IMG/VR virus record: IMGVR_UViG_3300045988_028614
Coordinates: 1 to 40,263 of that record
Length of the DNA: 40,263 nt
Direction: 5' to 3' (one strand)
DNA from: a virus
The notes beneath the pieces were generated by a model that searched no databases, was not told the origin of the DNA, and saw only the letters and a program-made list of their open reading frames with translations. The translations under genes were made by a program, and so were the position numbers. Shown here piece after piece: positions 1 to 40,263 of the stretch (position 1 is the first letter of the stretch; each line of letters begins with the position of its first letter).

Positions 1-60
1 ATTTTTTTATAAATATTTGCTATATAGAAATTAGTGTAGTTTTTGTAGTAAATGTAGTAA
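1..60. repeat. Iteron array B, distal part (array wraps across the contig junction from 39921..40263)
   Basis: gctatatagaaa followed by tgtagtttttgtagtaaatgtagtaa (35-60), which is three inverted copies of the TTACTACATTT unit. These 26 nt are identical to 24985-25010 in array A. Confidence 0.8.
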
Positions 61-120: not shown

Positions 121-149
121 TTGACACGTAAAGCTATTTTTGCTATAAT
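121..149 (+). promoter_or_regulatory. Sigma-A type promoter
   Basis: TTGACA (121-126), 17-nt spacer, extended -10 TGcTATAAT (141-149). An imperfect inverted repeat gtgaaggagg/cctcctcac (91-112) lies just upstream. Confidence 0.6.
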
Positions 150-155
150 GTAAGT

Positions 156-222
156 ATAAAAGTACCTCCAAACGATAAAGTGTTTTGCAAAAGGGCGTTC
201 TAGTTAAGAACGTTCTTTTTTT
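156..222 (+). ncRNA. Candidate short transcript or attenuated leader running from promoter 121-149 to terminator 193-222
   Basis: Promoter and intrinsic terminator are about 70 nt apart with no ORF between them. It contains cctcc (165-169), an anti-Shine-Dalgarno-like motif. The 5' end is inferred only from -10 spacing. Confidence 0.3.
193..222 (+). terminator. Rho-independent terminator
   Basis: Stem cgttct (196-201) / agaacg (207-212), 5-nt loop, then ttcttttttt. Confidence 0.6.
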
Positions 223-228
223 ATGCAC

Positions 229-258
229 TTTACAAATTTATAACGCATTTGATATAAT
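229..258 (+). promoter_or_regulatory. Putative promoter for the scaffold-capsid genes
   Basis: TTTACA (229-234), 18-nt spacer, TATAAT (253-258). Confidence 0.45.
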
Positions 259-310
259 TAAATTATCCTAAGAGCTTACAACTCTATAAAAACGTAAAGG
301 AGGAATATAA

Positions 311-862
311 ATGGATTTAAAAGCAATATTAAAAAGATGTGGATTAGAAGGTGAGTTAGTGGACACTATTGCAGACACTATAAAAGCAGAAATCCCTAAG
401 GAGTTCGTTTCTAAGCAACAATACAATAAGAAAGTTGGTGCTATAGATGAACTTAATAACACTATTGCAGATTTAGAAGCTAAGATTGAGAACTCAAATA
501 CTGACGAGTATAAGAGTAAATATGAAGCTTTACAGAGTGAATTTGACACATATAAAAATAACATAGAAGTTGAAAAGATTAATGAACAGAAGAGAGGTTT
601 ATTAACCGAACAACTAAAAAAAGAAGGATTCAACGAAAAAATACTAAAGTTGTTAACTAAAGAAATAGATTTAGAAACTTTAGAGATTGAAAATGATGCT
701 ATAAAAGATTGGGATAATATAGTTAATCCATTAAAGGAAAATTATTCTGATTTTATAAAGCAAGAGAGTATTAGTGGTTTAGGTTCAGTACAACCACCAA
801 CAAACACACAAACAGAAAATAATGACAATCCTCTAGCAAATGCTTTAGGAAAATATTTATAA
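311..862 (+). CDS. Scaffolding protein (phage GP20-like minor structural protein)
   Basis: RBS aaaggagg upstream. Coiled-coil-rich 183 aa sitting directly upstream of the capsid gene. The N-terminus MDLKAILKRCGLEGELVDTI...IPKEFVSKQQYNKK is typical of GP20-type scaffolds. Confidence 0.7.
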   Translation: MDLKAILKRCGLEGELVDTIADTIKAEIPKEFVSKQQYNKKVGAIDELNNTIADLEAKIENSNTDEYKSKYEALQSEFDTYKNNIEVEKINEQKRGLLTEQLKKEGFNEKILKLLTKEIDLETLEIENDAIKDWDNIVNPLKENYSDFIKQESISGLGSVQPPTNTQTENNDNPLANALGKYL

Positions 863-877
863 TAGGAGGTAAGGCGA

Positions 878-1855
878 ATGGCACTTACATTAGAACAAAG
901 TAAAGTCGGTATGGCTAATAAGGTCGACCAAACTGTAATTGATATGTTTAGAAGAGAATCAACGTTGCTAGATAAAATGGTGTTTGACAATGCGGTTTCA
1001 CCGGGTACTGGTGGTTCTACATTAACATATGGTTATCAACAATTAAAAACTCCTTCAACTGCAAAATTCAGAAAAATAGGAGAAAACTATACTGCAAATG
1101 AAGCAATAAGAGAAGCTAAGACTGCTGATTGTAAAATATTCGGTGGTAGCTTCGGGGTTGATAGAGTTATCGCTCAAACTAGCGGAGCTATCGATGAAGT
1201 TGCTTTCCAAATGCAACAAAAAATTAAAGGAGCTGTTAATTTATTTAACTACGCTTTAATAAAAGGGGATAAGAGTGGTACTCAAAGCGGGAGCCATCCG
1301 GAGTTTGATGGATTAGACAAGCTTCTAGCGGATACAGAAACAGAATACGAACCGGAAGCGGCTATCGATTTATCTACTTCTGCAAAAATGACAGAAAATG
1401 CCGAGTTGTTTGCTGATACATTAGATGAATGGTTATCTTTATTTGAAGAAAAACCGGATTTCTTAATAATGAATAGTAAAATGGCTACTAAAATGAAGTC
1501 AATTGCTAGAAAGTTAGGTTATTACACAAGAACAGAAGATGCTTTTGGAAGAGGTGTAGATAATTACGATGGAATACCTTTTTATGTTGTAGGAACTTAT
1601 TATGATGGTTCCCAAGCTAAAGAAATAATAGAGATAGACACTTCTACTAAAGAAACTTCTATCTATGGAGTTAAAATAGATTTAGGAGGATTCCACGGAA
1701 TTTCACCGGCTGGGGATAAGATAATAAAGACTTATCAAAAAGATGTAACTGATACTGGAGTTATAATCGATGGTGAAGTAGAAGCGGTTATGGGTGTAGT
1801 TCTAAAGAACTCAAGAAAAGCAGGTGTATTAAGAAAAATAAAAGTAGCACCCTAA
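878..1855 (+). CDS. Major capsid protein
   Basis: 325 aa, RBS aggaggt, positioned after the scaffold gene and followed by a strong terminator, as expected for an abundant product. Confidence 0.8.
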   Translation: MALTLEQSKVGMANKVDQTVIDMFRRESTLLDKMVFDNAVSPGTGGSTLTYGYQQLKTPSTAKFRKIGENYTANEAIREAKTADCKIFGGSFGVDRVIAQTSGAIDEVAFQMQQKIKGAVNLFNYALIKGDKSGTQSGSHPEFDGLDKLLADTETEYEPEAAIDLSTSAKMTENAELFADTLDEWLSLFEEKPDFLIMNSKMATKMKSIARKLGYYTRTEDAFGRGVDNYDGIPFYVVGTYYDGSQAKEIIEIDTSTKETSIYGVKIDLGGFHGISPAGDKIIKTYQKDVTDTGVIIDGEVEAVMGVVLKNSRKAGVLRKIKVAP

Positions 1856-24688: not shown

Positions 24689-25010
24689 TTACTACATTTA
24701 CTACATTTTTAAGTTACATTTTTGTAGTTTTACTACATTTACTACACTTAATTATAAACAAAATGTTACCAATCAATTCATAATTAATTAAAATATTTAC
24801 TACATTTTTAAGCTTACTACATTTTTTACTACATAATTACTACATTTTTAAAACCCTTTGTAAGCTAGTGATACCAACGCTTTATATATATTTACTACAT
24901 TTACTACATTAAATTATAAGACTTTATTATAAGTAATAAAATAATATATATATTTTATATAAAAATGTGCTATATAGAAAATGATGTAGTTTTTGTAGTA
25001 AATGTAGTAA
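24689..25010. repeat. Iteron array A (origin-like): about 10 direct and 3-4 inverted copies of TTACTACATTT around an AT-rich block
   Basis: Direct ACTACA cores at 24691, 24700, 24732, 24741, 24799, 24816, 24829, 24839, 24894 and 24903. AT-only stretch 24911-24967. Inverted copies at 24985-25010. Non-coding. Collinear with 39921..40263+1..60. Confidence 0.85.
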
Positions 25011-25116: not shown

Positions 25117-25144
25117 TTGACAAGATAATTAAGTATGCTATAAT
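25117..25144 (+). promoter_or_regulatory. Conserved early promoter cassette, copy 2
   Basis: TTGACAagataattaagtatgcTATAATtatacttgta. Confidence 0.7.
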
Positions 25145-29157: not shown

Positions 29158-30126
29158 ATGATTAAGATTAAAGTAAGTCAGAAAGGTTATAAAGTTAAAC
29201 CAACTGCAACTGACATGATAGATATTACAATGGGTATGAAAAATTACCCTTGTATATACGTTGATTATAGAGAAATAAAAGAATATTTAAAAAGAGGTCA
29301 TTCTGTTTTATTAGCAGAATTTCAAGAAGATAGTAAGGATATATTTGAAAGCAGCATTAATTGTTTAGAGTGTATTGCTTTAGATGTAGATAGCAAAGAA
29401 AATGAGATTACATTATTTGAAATGGTTGCATTAGTAAATAAAAAACTAGGTGTTTATCCTATAATAGAATATCCAACTTTTAGTGATACTGATTACACTA
29501 AATTCAGATTGATTTATAGATTAGAAAGTCCTATTGATGTTGAAACTTATAAGTTATTGTATAAGGCTCTACAATGGAAGTTTAATAAATATTTAGATCA
29601 AGCTACAAGCAACGCAAATCGTATATGGGCTGGGACAAATAAAGAGGTAACTTACAGAGAGAACGACATTCCTATAAGTTGTACATTAATTGTAAAACTT
29701 ATAAATGCTTATCAATCTAAGTTAAAGAGGGATAACAAAGCTAAGCAAAAAGTTATTGAAAAAGGGTATACTCAATATGACGGTGAGGATTATATTAAGC
29801 CGCAATATAAAGAAGAGTGTTTAAATAGACTAATATCGTCTATAAGCTTAAAAGACTTCATACAGAAGCATCTAGGTGGAGAATTTAAGTATATGAATGG
29901 TAATTATATTGGTAGATGTGTTTTGCATGGTGGAGATAATAAAGGAGCTTTAGTTATAAATGATGAAAAAGGTATTTACACTTGCTTTACACATTGTGGA
30001 ACTGGTAATTTAATATCAGTTGCTAAAAAGGTTTATGGAATTACTAATTTTTCTAAATTGGCGTTTATATTAGCGCAAGAATATAATTTAAGTATTCCGG
30101 AAGAATGGATTAGGAGGATTAAATAA
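29158..30126 (+). CDS. Primase-related protein: possible AEP-like N-region plus a C-terminal CHC2 (DnaG-type) zinc finger
   Basis: C-terminus LKDFIQKHLGGEFKYMNGNYIGRCVLHGGDNKGALVINDEKGIYTCFTHCGTGNLISV matches the CHC2 primase zinc finger. CIALDVDS in the N-half could be a DxD catalytic motif, but this is weak. Confidence 0.5.
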   Translation: MIKIKVSQKGYKVKPTATDMIDITMGMKNYPCIYVDYREIKEYLKRGHSVLLAEFQEDSKDIFESSINCLECIALDVDSKENEITLFEMVALVNKKLGVYPIIEYPTFSDTDYTKFRLIYRLESPIDVETYKLLYKALQWKFNKYLDQATSNANRIWAGTNKEVTYRENDIPISCTLIVKLINAYQSKLKRDNKAKQKVIEKGYTQYDGEDYIKPQYKEECLNRLISSISLKDFIQKHLGGEFKYMNGNYIGRCVLHGGDNKGALVINDEKGIYTCFTHCGTGNLISVAKKVYGITNFSKLAFILAQEYNLSIPEEWIRRIK

Positions 30127-35693: not shown

Positions 35694-36593
35694 ATGGATA
35701 AAGCACATAAAGAAACTGATAAAATCCTTGCTAAGCTAGAAAAAAATATTGAAGAGTTATATTCTGATGCTTTAAGAGAATTAAAAAGTAAATTAAATAC
35801 CGTTATAAGTCGAATAGACACTACTAAAGACGCACAACAGATATATAATCAATTACAACAGAAAAAGCGTTTAGAAGCTCTTATAAGAGAAATGTCACTG
35901 GTTGTTAATAATGCCAATAAGGTCGCTATGGATATCATGAACGATGATATGATAGACATTTATTCTTTAAACTATAATTGGGGAGCTTATGAAGTAGAAA
36001 AGGCAGTTGCTAAAGATATAGGATATACTCTTTATAATAGAAACGCTATCAAGTTATTATTAAAAGAAGAGATAAACCCGTTTACCTTGATGGCTATTGA
36101 TGATTTAACAGATAAGACTACTTTGTATAAAGAATTAAAGAAAGCTCTTGCTAGTGGACTTCTACAAGGTGAGAGTATGCAGAAGATAGCTTCAAGAATT
36201 AAAAAAATAACTGAAAAGAACTATAATGATTCTCTTAGAATTGCTAGAACCGAAACGACTAGAATAGAGAATGTTGGCAGATTAGACAGTTATAAGTTTG
36301 CAGAAAAACAAGGATTAAAGATTCAAAAATCATGGTTAGCTACAATGGATAAGAGGACGAGAGAAACGCATCAGAGAGTTAATGGCGAGATAGTTGACTT
36401 GGATAAGCCTTTTAGTAATGGTTTAATGTACCCGGGCGACCCAAACGGTGGAGCAAGTGAAGTAATCCGCTGTAGATGTACTATGACTACTGAATTTATA
36501 GGTTTCGAAAAAGGAGAAAAAGAAAAAGAACTTGATGAAAAACTTAGAAAAATGAGTTTTGAAGAATGGCAAGAAAGGAAGAAAAAGAAATGA
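35694..36593 (+). CDS. Head morphogenesis protein (Mu F / SPP1 gp7-like)
   Basis: RIARTETTRIENVG...WLATMDKRTRETHQRVNGEIV...PGDPNGGASEVIRCRCT are family motifs. Confidence 0.85.
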   Translation: MDKAHKETDKILAKLEKNIEELYSDALRELKSKLNTVISRIDTTKDAQQIYNQLQQKKRLEALIREMSLVVNNANKVAMDIMNDDMIDIYSLNYNWGAYEVEKAVAKDIGYTLYNRNAIKLLLKEEINPFTLMAIDDLTDKTTLYKELKKALASGLLQGESMQKIASRIKKITEKNYNDSLRIARTETTRIENVGRLDSYKFAEKQGLKIQKSWLATMDKRTRETHQRVNGEIVDLDKPFSNGLMYPGDPNGGASEVIRCRCTMTTEFIGFEKGEKEKELDEKLRKMSFEEWQERKKKK

Positions 36594-36815
36594 AAATAAA
36601 GTTTGAAAACAACGCCAATGTATTCAAAAAAGAGATGGATAGCAAGGTTATAAAGTGCTTAAATGCAGTTGGTTTGAAAGCGGTTAGTATATGGCAAAAA
36701 GTTATCACCGCTAAGAAAGTCGTTGATACTGGAAGATTTAGGAATAGTGCTAATTATGCAGTTAAAACCCAAGATAAGAAGGTTGTCATAGGTTCTAATG
36801 TGGAATATGCTCCGT
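36590..36815 (+). CDS. HK97 gp10-like neck/tail-component protein, exon 1
   Basis: ATGA overlap with the MuF stop. VVDTGRFRNSANYAV...GSNVEYAPY. Unspliced reading gives SF then stop. Confidence 0.65.
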
Positions 36816-36890
36816 ATAGTTTTTAATGCGGCTTTATATGGTAACATATATCGAATAAAAGGGCAAAATCGGAAAAGGCTAAGTTGTTAA

Positions 36891-36920
36891 TTGACAAATA
36901 TCCCTCGAATGTGGTACAAT
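36891..36920 (+). promoter_or_regulatory. Promoter inside the intron for the HNH ORF
   Basis: TTGACA, 18-nt spacer, TGgTACAAT. Confidence 0.5.
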
Positions 36921-36937
36921 AAAAGAGAGGTGATAAC

Positions 36938-37561
36938 ATGAATAAAAATATTAAAAATTTAATTGGCATGAAATTTGGAAGATTAACAGTTCTAGGTTTA
37001 AGTGATAAGAAGAGCAGAAAAACTTATTGGGATTGTATATGTGATTGTGGAAATTTTAAAACAGCTAGAAGTGATTCTTTGCAAGATGGTTCAATTAAAA
37101 GTTGTGGTTGCTTAAAAAAAGAACAAGATAAATTAAATTTAAATCAAACTACTCATAACTTATCTAAAACAAGAATATATAAAACTTGGCAAGGTATGAA
37201 AAAACGTATTTTTAATCCGAACGATACAAGGTTTGCGAATTATGGAGGAAGAGGAATAAAAATATGTGATGAATGGCTTGATTTTGAAAAGTTTTATATG
37301 TGGTCTATTTCTAACGGTTATTCTAAAAACTTGACTATAGATAGAATAGACAATAACGGAAATTATGAACCTAATAATTGCCGATGGGTAGATATGAAAA
37401 CACAATCTAGAAACAGAAGTAGTAATATATTAATAACAATAGGCAACACCACAAAATGTTTAATTGAGTGGTGCGAATTATTCAACTTAAAATATACTAT
37501 GGTTCATGCTAGATATAAAAATAACGAAAATATAACTCTAGATGAATTATTCAAACAATAA
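36938..37561 (+). CDS. Intron-encoded HNH-type homing endonuclease
   Basis: 207 aa, RBS agagagg, paralogue of 21684..22307 (GRLTVL, CDCGN, KSCGCLKKE, GGRGIKICDEW, IDRIDNNGNYEPNNCRW, QSRN). Confidence 0.8.
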   Translation: MNKNIKNLIGMKFGRLTVLGLSDKKSRKTYWDCICDCGNFKTARSDSLQDGSIKSCGCLKKEQDKLNLNQTTHNLSKTRIYKTWQGMKKRIFNPNDTRFANYGGRGIKICDEWLDFEKFYMWSISNGYSKNLTIDRIDNNGNYEPNNCRWVDMKTQSRNRSSNILITIGNTTKCLIEWCELFNLKYTMVHARYKNNENITLDELFKQ

Positions 37562-37745
37562 GCTAATACCGAGGTAAAGCACATTTTAAAAGATGTGGCT
37601 CACCGTAGAGCGTAGGTGTTGAAACTTTTTAAAAGAATATAATACGCCCAAGAGTGTCCTTATTCCTTCTAGGAATGTGATGTACGCCGACCTTATAGGA
37701 AACTATAAGAAATAGAGGATAAAAAGCCTTTATGTTAACAAAGTG

Positions 37746-37855
37746 ATTTAGAAAATGGAACAAGTAGGCAACCCGCAAGACCAACGCTTAAACCTGCTAT
37801 AATGGATTACAGAGAAGATTACGAAAAGTTAATTGAACAAATACTAAAAGATTGA
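37746..37855 (+). CDS. HK97 gp10-like protein, exon 2
   Basis: at|tta gaa aat gga aca... translates to (Y)LENGTSRQPARPTLKPAIMDYREDYEKLIEQILKD then stop. It has no start codon or RBS of its own. Confidence 0.65.
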
Positions 37856-37880
37856 CAATGATAGTTAAGTTTGCTATAAT
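37852..37880 (+). promoter_or_regulatory. Conserved early promoter cassette, copy 7 (the -35 overlaps the gp10-like stop codon)
   Basis: TTGACAatgatagttaagtttgcTATAAT. Confidence 0.6.
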
Positions 37881-37886
37881 ATAATT

Positions 37887-37957
37887 GGACATGATAATTC
37901 TCCTTTGATAAATTATACTCACCCCTAAGACGAGAGGAAAAATTCCTCTCTTTTTTT
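37887..37957 (+). ncRNA. Candidate short transcript between promoter copy 7 and terminator 37932-37957
   Basis: Only a 5-codon mini-ORF (atgataattctcctttga). Contains ctcct (37900-37904), which is anti-SD-like. Ends in a strong terminator. The 5' end is inferred. Confidence 0.3.
37932..37957 (+). terminator. Rho-independent terminator
   Basis: gagagga (37932-37938) / tcctctc (37944-37950) plus ttttttt. Confidence 0.75.
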
Positions 37958-37966
37958 ATTTTATTA

Positions 37967-37994
37967 TTGACAATATAATTAAGTGTGTTATAAT
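37967..37994 (+). promoter_or_regulatory. Conserved early promoter cassette, copy 8
   Basis: TTGACAatataattaagtgtgtTATAATttagat. Confidence 0.7.
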
Positions 37995-38026
37995 TTAGAT
38001 ATAGTAAATATTTGGAGGTATTAATT

Positions 38027-38164
38027 ATGAAATGGAATTATAAAAAGTTTTTAAGAAATATGTTTTTTACAGTTGTAGCACCAATATTAGTCGTTGCTAT
38101 AGCTTTTATAGGAGCTTTAATAGCTGATTGGTTTTATAATTTACCTAATTGGTTTGGATTTTAG
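38027..38164 (+). CDS. 45-aa hydrophobic peptide (toxin-like or exclusion-like small membrane protein; not in the ORF track)
   Basis: RBS ggaggt 8 nt upstream; MKWNYKKFLRNMFFTVVAPILVVAIAFIGALIADWFYNLPNWFGF. It has its own promoter and terminator. Confidence 0.6.
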   Translation: MKWNYKKFLRNMFFTVVAPILVVAIAFIGALIADWFYNLPNWFGF

Positions 38165-38192
38165 GAAGGGGAGCAATCCTCTTCTTTTTTTT
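38165..38192 (+). terminator. Rho-independent terminator (GCAA loop)
   Basis: gaagggga-gcaa-tcctcttc followed by tttttttt. Confidence 0.75.
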
Positions 38193-38205
38193 GTTTTAAT
38201 CGCAT

Positions 38206-38232
38206 AAAAAAAGAGAAGGTCAACCCTCCTCT
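38206..38232 (-). terminator. Probable terminator of the minus-strand small gene
   Basis: On the minus strand, gaggagggttgaccttctc followed by ttttttt. The stem is imperfect. Confidence 0.45.
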
Positions 38233-38356
38233 AATAAACAAATATAATATCTCCTTCTATGCTGAATCTCATTCTTTTTCTTTGCAACTCTTTACAGATT
38301 TTTATTCTCTCCTTAAATCCATTGTAAGGAATAGCTTCACATATAAATCTACCCAT
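38231..38356 (-). CDS. 41-aa basic protein, the only convincing minus-strand gene (not in the ORF track)
   Basis: Minus-strand RBS aggaggt 7 nt before the ATG; MGRFICEAIPYNGFKERIKICKELQRKRMRFSIEGDIIFVY. Driven by minus-strand copy 9 of the conserved promoter. Confidence 0.55.
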   Translation of the reverse strand: MGRFICEAIPYNGFKERIKICKELQRKRMRFSIEGDIIFVY

Positions 38357-38387
38357 GATAATACCTCCTAAGAATATTTATAAGTTA

Positions 38388-38416
38388 ATTATACACTTAC
38401 TTAATTATTTTGTCAA
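38388..38416 (-). promoter_or_regulatory. Conserved early promoter cassette, copy 9 (minus strand)
   Basis: The reverse complement reads TTGACAaaataattaagtaagtgTATAATtaacttataaat. Confidence 0.65.
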
Positions 38417-38431
38417 TAAATAAAAAAATAC

Positions 38432-38461
38432 TTTACAAGTGTGTACCCACTATGTTATTAT
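38432..38461 (+). promoter_or_regulatory. Putative divergent promoter for the RHH-like gene and the VirE-like gene
   Basis: TTTACA (38432-38437), 18-nt spacer, TGtTATTAT (38453-38461). Confidence 0.4.
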
Positions 38462-38480
38462 TGTCTTGCGAGGTGATAAT

Positions 38481-38609
38481 ATGAAAAATCGTAAGAGAAG
38501 TAAACAAGTTAAATTCTACCTTACTGAAAAAGAGAAAAAAGCGTTTGATAATTGGAGAGGTGAAAAACCTATTCATATCGCTATAATGGAAATAGTTAAT
38601 GGTAAATAA
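38481..38609 (+). CDS. 42-aa CopG/MobC-like ribbon-helix-helix candidate (not in the ORF track)
   Basis: RBS gaggtg; MKNRKRSKQVKFYLTEKEKKAFDNWRGEKPIHIAIMEIVNGK. A basic tail, a beta-strand (VKFYL) and two short helices fit an RHH pattern. Confidence 0.45.
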   Translation: MKNRKRSKQVKFYLTEKEKKAFDNWRGEKPIHIAIMEIVNGK

Positions 38610-38622
38610 GGAGGATATTAAA

Positions 38623-39882
38623 ATGCAAAACACTAAAAAAGTTTTTTCAATTAATGATGTTAAAAATAAAAAGAGCAACGTTTCTCTTATACAATTTCCG
38701 GAGGTTAAATATTTAAAAGATGGCGGAACAGTTCCAATAAAGACAATGGCAAATTTAGAATATTTGTTAAATCATTATGGAATAAATCCAGTTATGAATA
38801 AGATAACTCATGAATTAACTTTACAAATGGAAGGCAGAAAGTTTAAAAAAAGAGGTGAGATGCTGACATTTGTATATGATTTACAAGTGAAAGAAGGTTT
38901 AAATCTTAATAGGGCGGTATGCGACGAATATTTAATTGATATAGCTAACAGAAAAGAAATAAATCCCTTTGTAGATATGTTGAAGAAGTATAGAAATGAT
39001 AATCACGATATAGTGCTTGATGTGTTTGAAAAGTGTTTAACGCTTCAAGATGATGCTTTAGAAGATGCAGAGTATTATTTCACTTTGTTTTATAAATGGC
39101 TTCTAAATGTTGTTAAAATGGCTCACAATGAGCTAGAAAACCGTTATAGTTCTAATGGAGTACTAACACTTCAAGGGGAACAGGGATGCCGTAAATCAAC
39201 GTTTGCACGTAAATTAATGCCGCTTAATGACTTGTTCAAAGATGGAGTATCTTTAGACCCTGATAAAACTGATAGCGTGATTCAAAATACTAAATATATT
39301 CTTGTTGAGTTAGCAGAATTAGATACAACTTTAAAAGCTGACCAAGGTAAAATTAAGCAGTTTTTAACTAATACAACTGATGAATATAGAGTTCCGTTTG
39401 GTCGTGTCGCTGAAATATATCCAAGGCTAACAAGTTATATTGCTAATGTTAATAAAAAAGATTTCTTAAAAGATGAAACAGGTTCAAGAAGGTTTTGGGT
39501 AATTCCTGTTAAATCTTGTAATATAGAAGAGTTTGACAATTTCAATATGTTTGAGTTTTGGGGCGCAGTATATGATATGTGGTTGACTAATTATAGTATT
39601 GATTGGTTGACCAAAGAGGAAGAAGCGAAACAAAAAATAATTAATAGACAATTCAATGCTCAAACAGATATATCAATCATATTAGATGACAAAGTAGACT
39701 GGGAAAGTAACGACTTGAGAGTGTACAAGCTTACAGAAATAGCTGAAAAGCTCAATATAAAAGAAAAGAAAGCACTTGCTAATGAGCTTATGAGGAGAGG
39801 AATACCTAACCAACCATATAAAGTTGATGGTAAATCAATCCGTGGTTACAAAATACCATTTATAAGAGATTACTGGGAATAA
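38623..39882 (+). CDS. VirE-family (virulence-associated protein E / primase-helicase C-terminal type) P-loop NTPase, putative replication helicase or initiator
   Basis: ATG 38623 with RBS aaggagg (the track starts at 38599). Walker A LTLQGEQGCRKSTF, Walker B ILVELAELD, and the family motif YRVPFGRVAEIYPRLTSYIANVNKKDFLKDETGSRRFWVIPV. Confidence 0.75.
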   Translation: MQNTKKVFSINDVKNKKSNVSLIQFPEVKYLKDGGTVPIKTMANLEYLLNHYGINPVMNKITHELTLQMEGRKFKKRGEMLTFVYDLQVKEGLNLNRAVCDEYLIDIANRKEINPFVDMLKKYRNDNHDIVLDVFEKCLTLQDDALEDAEYYFTLFYKWLLNVVKMAHNELENRYSSNGVLTLQGEQGCRKSTFARKLMPLNDLFKDGVSLDPDKTDSVIQNTKYILVELAELDTTLKADQGKIKQFLTNTTDEYRVPFGRVAEIYPRLTSYIANVNKKDFLKDETGSRRFWVIPVKSCNIEEFDNFNMFEFWGAVYDMWLTNYSIDWLTKEEEAKQKIINRQFNAQTDISIILDDKVDWESNDLRVYKLTEIAEKLNIKEKKALANELMRRGIPNQPYKVDGKSIRGYKIPFIRDYWE

Positions 39883-39886
39883 ATTA

Positions 39887-39914
39887 AGGCAGTATTTTTA
39901 CTGTCTTTTTTTTT
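39887..39914 (+). terminator. Rho-independent terminator
   Basis: aggcagta-tttt-tactgtct followed by ttttttttt. Confidence 0.75.
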
Positions 39915-39920
39915 ATTTTC

Positions 39921-40263
39921 AATTACTACATTTTCGGATTCAGTTACTACATTTTTATGTAGTAATACTACATTTTTACTACATTTTTACTACATTTTGC
40001 GGTTACATTTTTGTAGTTTACTACATTTTTAACAATAAAACTTATTGATAAACTGTTAAAACTCATTCATATATTATTAATTACTTTACTACATTTTTAG
40101 GGTTACTACATTTTTTACTACACTTTTACTACATTTTTGTAACCCCTTCAAACCGTTGGTATCACTAGCTTTATATATATTTACTACATTTACTACATTT
40201 ATTTTCAAGAGTTTATTTATAATAATAAATTATATATATATTTTTTTATAAATATTTGCTATA
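39921..40263. repeat. Iteron array B (origin-like), proximal part; continues at 1..60
   Basis: Direct ACTACA cores at 39925, 39946, 39967, 39978, 39989 (11-nt phasing), 40020, 40088, 40105, 40117, 40128, 40183 and 40192. Inverted copies near 39958 and 40012. AT-only block 40200-40250. Confidence 0.85.
40240..40263. repeat. 24-nt terminal overlap with positions 1..24 (circular closure of the contig)
   Basis: atttttttataaatatttgctata occurs at both ends. Confidence 0.9.

Follow-up and report, generated by a model that had tools for sequence, protein, structure and literature searches.

The window analysed here, the whole of the IMG/VR virus record IMGVR_UViG_3300045988_028614 (40,263 nucleotides (nt)), is the complete, circularly permuted genome of a Clostridium perfringens siphophage of the phiCP39-O/phiCP26F type. 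Between its packaging and capsid genes lies a block of short transcription units, a helicase gene and an array of iterons, which we consider likely to be a replication-initiation module of the phage itself (from 38432 through the junction of the window ends to 59), preceded by a slot of accessory genes (37852–38416). The module would consist of a self-loading superfamily 3 (SF3) initiator-helicase of the VapE/SaPI-Rep1 type (SaPI, Staphylococcus aureus pathogenicity island), expressed from promoter P4 together with an open reading frame (ORF) of 42 amino acids (aa), and of its cognate origin directly behind the helicase gene, made up of direct iterons, an 18-nt core, an AT-rich melting stretch and inverted iterons. 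The original prediction had described the same block as a plasmid-like replicon cassette that splits the head-morphogenesis operon. The features that it listed are all real, at or within a few bases of where it had placed them and above chance. The block does sit between the packaging, MuF and gp10-like genes on one side and the scaffold and capsid genes on the other, as judged by profile matches of the flanking genes, and its right half is indeed a replicon-type module, with an initiator-helicase followed by iterons and an AT-rich stretch. Positions 40240–40263 repeat positions 1–24 exactly (24 nt), which gives a circle of about 40,239 base pairs (bp) in which the block continues directly into 25–310; the repeat looks like an assembly overlap of a circular or circularly permuted genome and not like a biological terminal repeat.

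The helicase is a 419-residue protein with an N-terminal domain, an ATPase core (residues ~121–345) and a C-terminal domain (~346–419) that is winged-helix-like by prediction. PF05272 is found at residues 121–345 (E = 6.9e-41), and the protein as a whole fits phrog_1313 'DNA helicase' (4.8e-101), bearing out the VirE-family P-loop NTPase that had been recognised from the letters of 38623..39882. The only solved structure found by the helicase sequence is PDB 7PDS, the complex of SaPI1 Rep1 with DNA (7e-11), and the best Foldseek match of an AlphaFold (AF2) model built from 49 homologues (predicted local distance difference test (pLDDT) 87) is again 7PDS, aligned over the full length (3.8e-16, template modelling (TM) score 0.67–0.69). 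Next in the structural ranking come the NrS-1 helicase, poxvirus D5/E5 and the African swine fever virus (ASFV) PrimPol, all of them SF3 replicative helicases. Over the C-terminal 70 residues the predicted order of helices (H) and strands (E), H349–357, E365–368, H370–376, H382–391, E397–401 and E404–412, corresponds to that of a winged-helix-like domain. The gene is under extreme purifying selection: compared with phiCP39-O, phiCP13O and 17DYC it shows 18–33 nucleotide differences and 0 amino-acid differences, and the identical protein is encoded in 13 of the 15 Clostridium phage records listed.

Directly behind this gene lies array B, whose first iteron starts 42 nt past the helicase stop codon, after terminator T4. 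Twelve direct copies of the octamer TACTACAT are strung over 39924–40198 with spacings of 9, 11, 12, 21 nt and more, and one inverted copy sits amid them at 39957. A conserved non-iteron core, CGTTGGTATCACTAGCTT, occupies 40154–40171 and is followed by two more iterons, then by a stretch of 74 nt with 90.5% AT that crosses the junction (40201–40263 and 25–35), and finally by three inverted iterons at 34–59. The octamer is largely confined to such arrays: of its 25 exact copies in the window, 23 fall in 39924–40200 (with 34–59) and in a second array at 24690–25009. The motif TACTACATTT, counted with at most one mismatch, occurs 28 times in the window, against 9.5 expected. No DnaA boxes were found in either array.

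The SaPI origin lies directly 3′ of rep, has 6–12 iterons around an AT-rich centre, with at least two iterons per side in opposite orientation that are bound by the Rep C-terminal winged helix, and has the primase gene upstream (PMC9371898). Array B has this anatomy in its position, its direct and inverted iterons and its AT-rich stretch. If the phage helicase works as SaPI Rep does, its C-terminal winged helix would bind the TACTACAT iterons to either side of the AT-rich stretch, and helicase hexamers would load there and melt the AT-rich DNA, after which a separately encoded primase (29158–30126) would prime synthesis. A more distant relative, locus L006, fits the C-terminal domain as the determinant of specificity, because it has kept the TACTACAT iteron and the two helicases, 65% identical overall, are 82% identical in this domain, compared with 58–64% in the others.

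The second array, region A, is a paralogue of region B (~80% identical over ~340 nt), and behind it a perfect promoter (25117–25144) leads into a Gp157/ERF/ERCC4/SSB/primase module. The two paralogues are collinear except at the 18-nt core, which in array A (24862–24879) is an exact inversion of the copy in array B, both in the window and in phiCP39-O. This core, TTGRTATNACTAG, is conserved in or near VapE-linked repeat regions whose iterons differ (loci L007, L008, L026, L035, L085 and L091); it was not found in L004, and it has only one other match in 1.45 Mb of fetched loci. From its likeness to B and to known two-site systems, array A is probably a second origin or a helper site like crr of P4.

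The closest relatives of the helicase (47–66% identity) all stand in phage contexts. At 47–51% identity are the homologues in L004, a C. botulinum prophage, and in L007, L008 and L026, where the module reads Gp157–ERF–ERCC4–SSB–HTH–primase–VapE–ori and the ~300 nt of non-coding DNA 3′ of VapE hold direct repeats, an AT-rich stretch and inverted repeats. What is repeated varies among relatives (TTTGTACCC, GTTACCTA, GTTACC). A crude scan covered 81 VapE loci (77 from IMG/VR together with L004, L006, L007 and L008); about 33 of them have a 7-mer in at least five copies within 500 nt downstream, a count reached in 0 of 60 shuffles. The primase-like protein of the window is 48–55% identical to the product of the gene that immediately precedes VapE in L004, L007 and L008, and primase and helicase have diverged to similar extents in the relatives. 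The primase gene adjoins the helicase gene in L004, L007, L008 and L026 and lies 8.5 kb from it in the window. Judged from gene order, helicase and origin form a conserved unit, and the helicase gene appears to have been separated from the primase gene in this lineage.

The relatives also suggest what moved. L026 has SSB–primase–VapE–ori1 and, 8 kb further on, portal–MuF–gp10-like–ori2–scaffold, and in L008 a 54-aa gene and the scaffold gene directly follow a second complete array. A scaffold-side iteron locus thus exists in at least two further lineages of the family, and from these second arrays the position of array B probably predates the cassette. Only the phiCP39-O group and L006 have the helicase gene, the 42-aa ORF and the small genes in front of the scaffold-side array. 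The ancestral order would thus have been a helicase gene after the primase gene and a second array before the scaffold gene, and probably only the helicase gene with the small genes upstream of it has moved beside the scaffold-side array, the array itself keeping its ancestral place. The proposed insertion into the head operon therefore stands for the helicase and small genes, which were probably relocated there, and probably not for the iterons. As a separate observation, phages with an identical helicase (L012–L021 and the window) carry two unrelated head-gene sets downstream of array B, one in which the scaffold has 196 aa and the capsid is Phage_capsid_4, the other in which the scaffold has 183 aa and the capsid is of the SU10 type, which places the block and origin region at a mosaic junction where whole modules are exchanged.

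Between P4 and the helicase gene lies the 42-aa ORF. The spacer of P4 contains an imperfect palindrome, AGTGTGTACCCACT, a candidate operator by its sequence, which varies at one position only (a single base in 2 of 15 aligned sequences). Across all relatives the 42-aa region hardly varies, and this holds even for L006, where the DNA of the neighbouring helicase gene is only 72% identical. The product may be a small DNA-binding protein, and its predicted fold makes a ribbon–helix–helix (RHH) protein possible: an AF2 single-sequence model of low confidence (pLDDT 67) has an extended N-terminus and helices at 16–26 and 31–39. The label 'CopG-like RHH', which it had been given, is not established. 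Its match to a NikA-like RHH profile (E = 0.0096, 16.5 bits) is below the cut-off of 27, a homology search returned its own cluster only, and a sequence search of the PDB matched no RHH protein and gave spurious ankyrin-like matches only. A relic of the primase C-terminus was also considered for this ORF and rejected, as there is no similarity. It is unlikely that this protein binds the iterons; a general iteron binder it is not, because iteron-bearing relatives with a primase-adjacent helicase show no such gene before the helicase.

Table 1. Features of the block, its flanks and the related loci of the window.
Feature	Position	Strand	Remarks
HNH-carrying insert, 930 nt	36816..37745	+	interrupts the gp10-like (DUF646) head gene; left boundary of the block
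HNH endonuclease ORF, 624 nt	36938–37561	+	PHROG HNH endonuclease, 7e-80
Last exon (3′ end) of gp10-like head gene	37746..37855	+	
P1 unit	37852..37958	+	perfect promoter P1 37852–37880, ~70-nt transcript, terminator T1 37932–37950 and T-run
P2 unit	37967..38196	+	perfect promoter P2 37967–37994, 45-aa gene 38027–38164, terminator T2 38163–38189
P3 unit	38203..38416	-	perfect promoter P3 38416–38388, 41-aa gene 38356–38231, terminator T3 38232–38212
Promoter P4	38432–38461	+	weaker, TG-extended, TTTACA-18-TATTAT; drives 42-aa ORF and helicase gene
Imperfect 14-bp palindrome AGTGTGTACCCACT	38438–38451		in P4 spacer
42-aa ORF	38481–38609	+	
VapE/VirE-family SF3 initiator-helicase, 419 aa	38623..39882	+	alternative ATG 38599
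Terminator T4	39886..39907	+	of the 42-aa/helicase operon
Origin-like region B, left part	39924..40263	+	iterons, 18-nt core, start of AT-rich stretch
Origin-like region B, right part	25..59	+	past the window junction; AT-rich end, inverted iterons
Region before the scaffold gene	121..310	+	perfect promoter 121–149, ~80-nt transcript, hairpin 193–215, second promoter 229–258; leads to scaffold at 311
Scaffold (PF06810)	311–862		downstream flank
Major capsid (PF17236)	878–1855		downstream flank
Origin-like region A	24690..25009	+	10 direct iterons, 73 nt at 89% AT, 3 inverted iterons
Primase-like gene, 322 aa	29158–30126	+	CHC2 zinc ribbon; PF01807, 3.4e-07

The left part of the block, 37852–38416, reads as a hypervariable slot for small genes of an accessory kind, each transcribed from a promoter of its own to a separate terminator, and not as a maintenance system. 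The P1 unit produces a transcript with the CU-rich motifs UUCUCCUUU and CACCCCU, which is a candidate small RNA, and its terminator T1 probably also ends the packaging operon. The hexamers of P1 and the transcript are conserved in 15 relatives, with a variable promoter spacer; the unit is missing from the more distant L006, which retains the 45-aa gene. The 45-aa peptide (phrog_22191) is predicted to span the membrane once; its N-terminus is basic, a run of ~22 residues is hydrophobic, and its gene is constant across relatives (42 of 45 residues identical in L006). On the minus strand, the 41-aa ORF matches phrog_16552, and near-identical phages have in its place a 72-aa, 56-aa or 53-aa gene, a 60-aa plus-strand gene, a PAPS reductase gene or no called gene. 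Among phages with an identical helicase, the interval from the 45-aa to the 42-aa gene holds zero to four small genes on either strand. The convergent transcripts of the 45-aa and 41-aa genes terminate ~7 nt apart at separate terminators, without overlap, and this, with the hypervariable interval, speaks for accessory genes in a slot and not for an obligate toxin–antitoxin pair.

The membrane peptide and the convergent gene had been compared with post-segregational killing loci, and a killer reading can be put in a sharper form, in which 37852–38416 is a type I toxin–antitoxin or a small-RNA-controlled killer system and the P1 RNA represses translation of one small gene. The hydrophobic peptide with its basic N-terminus would suit the toxin of such a system, and the P1 transcript has anti-Shine–Dalgarno-like motifs, its best predicted duplex among 49 start regions being with the 41-aa gene (-23.7 kcal/mol; mean -15.3, standard deviation 2.9). 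That value is barely better than the runner-up at -23.3, so the pairing is no outlier, and the 41-aa gene was rejected as a distinctive target of the P1 RNA. There is, moreover, no antisense overlap; the 41-aa gene is replaced or absent in near-identical phages, where the small RNA and the 45-aa gene persist, and L006 keeps the 45-aa gene while lacking the P1 unit. PADLOC, run on the four cassette proteins, gave no match, and Pfam gave none to such a system. We therefore regard a killer system as very improbable, and the comparison with post-segregational killing is not upheld.

The same evidence bears on the wider proposal that the cassette is a plasmid-type maintenance replicon (copy-control repressor, Rep, iterons and post-segregational killer) through which the phage persists as an episome. 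In its favour, the logic of the module is that of initiator plus iterons, distant VapE homologues occur on small plasmids (at most 35% identical), a small membrane peptide gene is present, neither an integrase nor a contig over 50 kb with the helicase gene was found, and a SaPI replicon reportedly replicates as an unstable plasmid. As the original prediction had noted, domain searches of the window find no integrase, CI/Cro pair or partition ATPase. Integrase, CI-type repressor and partition protein were found neither in the window nor in the RefSeq annotation of phiCP39-O, and the only HTH_3 protein in the window belongs to the replication module, as it does in all relatives. In the assembly collection, 148 blocks encode this helicase with exactly the same protein sequence, and none of the contigs is longer than 50 kb. 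This excludes integration, is compatible with a virulent phage and an episome alike, and does not demonstrate episomal carriage. The sample and record names of the contigs listed suggest metagenome assemblies or the phage's own GenBank record and not host isolates. A scan of species-representative genomes for the helicase found nothing, which with one genome per species is a weak test. Against the episome stand the missing ParA/ParB-type and CI-type genes, the absence of the cassette from the 72,556 plasmid records of PLSDB (only a piece of the HNH insert matches), the nearest homologues in phage replication modules, the variable or absent partner of the putative toxin, the non-overlapping transcripts and the unproven RHH fold of the 42-aa ORF. 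Close relatives are known as plaque-forming phages or from virulent-phage screens and are described as lytic or virulent, a label that the present findings do not contradict. 'Plasmid-like' is thus not the description that fits the cassette, and a phage-plasmid is highly unlikely. Autonomous replication of the cloned cassette would not prove one either, because an initiator and origin segment of a lytic phage can replicate as a plasmid when excised, as in lambda dv. Nor is the window a phage satellite of the SaPI or phage-inducible chromosomal island (PICI) kind, since it encodes full packaging, head, tail and lysis gene sets of its own and no integrase was found in it.

The helicase protein is itself labelled 'integrase' in GenBank records MH999280 (CPD1), MZ401006 (CPQ4) and EU588980 (phiCP39-O). 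A domain search finds no integrase domain in it. A 2026 paper treats the CPD1 'integrase' as a lysogeny gene (PMC13203459); the label is an annotation error, and one that is relevant to safety in phage therapy.

Several points weigh against a phage replication-initiation module. The case for it rests on sequence, a predicted structure and the analogy with SaPI, which has a single ori, unlike the window with its second complete iteron locus. GC skew is positive throughout and rises monotonically, and gives no independent origin signal, which is uninformative because all genes lie on one strand. Some protein besides the helicase might be what binds the iterons, and the module might drive autonomous replication, as VapE-family proteins also occur on small plasmids. 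The arrays may also have a regulatory role, because they adjoin late head-operon and early promoters. In its strict form this would make both TACTACAT arrays mainly regulatory or architectural, as operators for the adjacent promoters (121, 229 and 25117) or as centromere-like sites. Each array does lie directly upstream of strong promoters, and the second array of L026 and L008 precedes the scaffold gene with no helicase gene adjacent. Within the window, L026 and L008 each, one repeat is common to both arrays, which suggests one binder for both (the repeat of the window differs from that shared by L026 and L008). Yet each array has the complete anatomy of an origin, with an AT-rich centre of ~75 nt and inverted flanking repeats, each has the conserved core that is found almost only in VapE-linked repeat regions, and no ParA/ParB-type gene was found in the window. 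We hold this explanation to be unlikely, while a possible dual role of the arrays, as origin and regulatory site, is compatible with the replication module. Also improbable in our view is a two-site system like P4 ori and crr, in which one helicase would act on two paralogous loci with inverted cores, each before a strong promoter (of the replication operon and of the head operon), and initiation would be coupled to the late-gene switch or to a plasmid-like carrier state.

The left boundary of the block is set by an insert just upstream of it, in the gp10-like gene. This gene ends at 37855, as had been predicted, but is itself interrupted by the 930-nt HNH insert. In the relatives 17DYC and phiCP13O it is unbroken, and joining 36566–36815 to 37746–37855 restores a full-length collinear protein that is 72% identical to that of 17DYC. 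The upstream exon closes with T (U) and the insert with G, and the insert is probably a group I intron. Rfam detected no ribozyme core in 36816–37745, a core that the 624-nt ORF possibly splits. The 3′ flank of the insert (37601–37746) is 81–91% identical to DNA of Staphylococcus phages and of Bacillus and C. difficile plasmids, and in B. subtilis plasmids the matching stretch falls under a NUMOD3-domain gene.

The region 37500–40263 is 96–97% identical to the C. perfringens phages vB_CpeP_PMQ04, phiCP26F, phiCP9O and phiCP39-O, and at least 80% of it is present in 15 phage records. The window has a G+C content of ~30% and every large ORF on the plus strand. Upstream of the block stand terS (PF16677), terL, portal (PF05133), MuF (PF04233) and the gp10-like gene. 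Perfect TTGACA-N16-18-TATAAT promoters number 10 in the whole window (0.07 expected from shuffles), and terminator-like hairpins 8 in the scanned region (1.1 expected). Eight of the 10 promoters (18380, 25117, 25888, 29097, 30517, 37852, 37967 and 38416(-)) also share most of their spacer (TTGACAAgATAATTAAGT...), a likeness that exceeds the needs of RNA polymerase and suggests either that one promoter cassette was duplicated repeatedly or that these promoters have a regulator site in common. Past the junction, the transcript from the 121–149 promoter holds a conserved GUACCUCCAAAC, anti-Shine–Dalgarno-like, and a 13-bp hairpin with U7; the hairpin at 193–215 exists as two sequence alleles among relatives, both of which form the stem. 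A search of the window for tRNA and tmRNA genes found none, and a whole-window Rfam scan at gathering scores, with two permissive scans, gave no RNA family for the short transcripts or the HNH insert. A match to MIR5743 was rejected, as it covers only the pair of back-to-back terminators.

The publications consulted on this C. perfringens phage group yielded no description of a replication origin. The present analysis assigns a candidate origin and initiator to phages that are being developed for biocontrol, and would extend the SaPI Rep–ori design beyond satellites, where it has been studied until now, to complete phages and to prophages of Clostridium. New for follow-up are the non-iteron core, conserved but in opposite orientation at the two loci, the recurrent second iteron locus before strong promoters and the relocation of the helicase gene away from the primase gene.

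Compared with the pri–rep–ori module of SaPI (Rep1, 7PDS; PMC9371898), the module of the window is alike in the structural homology of the helicase over its full length, in an ori directly 3′ of the helicase gene, in short iterons around an AT-rich centre and in the winged-helix-like C-terminus. Sequence identity between the helicase and Rep1 is only ~15%. The SaPI primase gene stands directly upstream of the helicase gene, as in the relatives of the window; SaPI iterons are penta- or hexamers, whereas the iteron here is an 8–10-mer with more direct copies on one side; and, unlike SaPI, the window has the 42-aa ORF before the helicase gene. SaPI is a satellite, whereas the module here is part of a complete phage of a plaque-forming group. 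The alpha protein of P4 is a D5-like SF3 helicase whose C-terminal domain binds iterons, and ori and crr lie kilobases apart; P4 can also live as a plasmid. Both P4 and the window have two iteron loci, but P4 alpha is a fused primase-helicase and the genes of the window are separate. The iteron-plasmid arrangement of pMV158, CopG–RepB, has a small RHH copy-control protein, and plasmids of this type show the same order of small basic protein, initiator and repeats, with an initiator of a different family; for the window, plasmid relatives and maintenance functions of this kind were not found. By the logic of lambda dv, the capacity of an initiator and origin segment says nothing about natural lifestyle. 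L004, L007, L008 and L026 have the orthologous helicase and primase (47–60%), the same module and an iteron origin 3′ of the helicase gene, which in them follows the primase gene and in the phiCP39-O group and L006 lies between the gp10-like and scaffold genes. In the main, then, what the window holds would be a SaPI-Rep1-type module for replication initiation, ordinary for a phage but unusually placed beside a hot spot of accessory genes.

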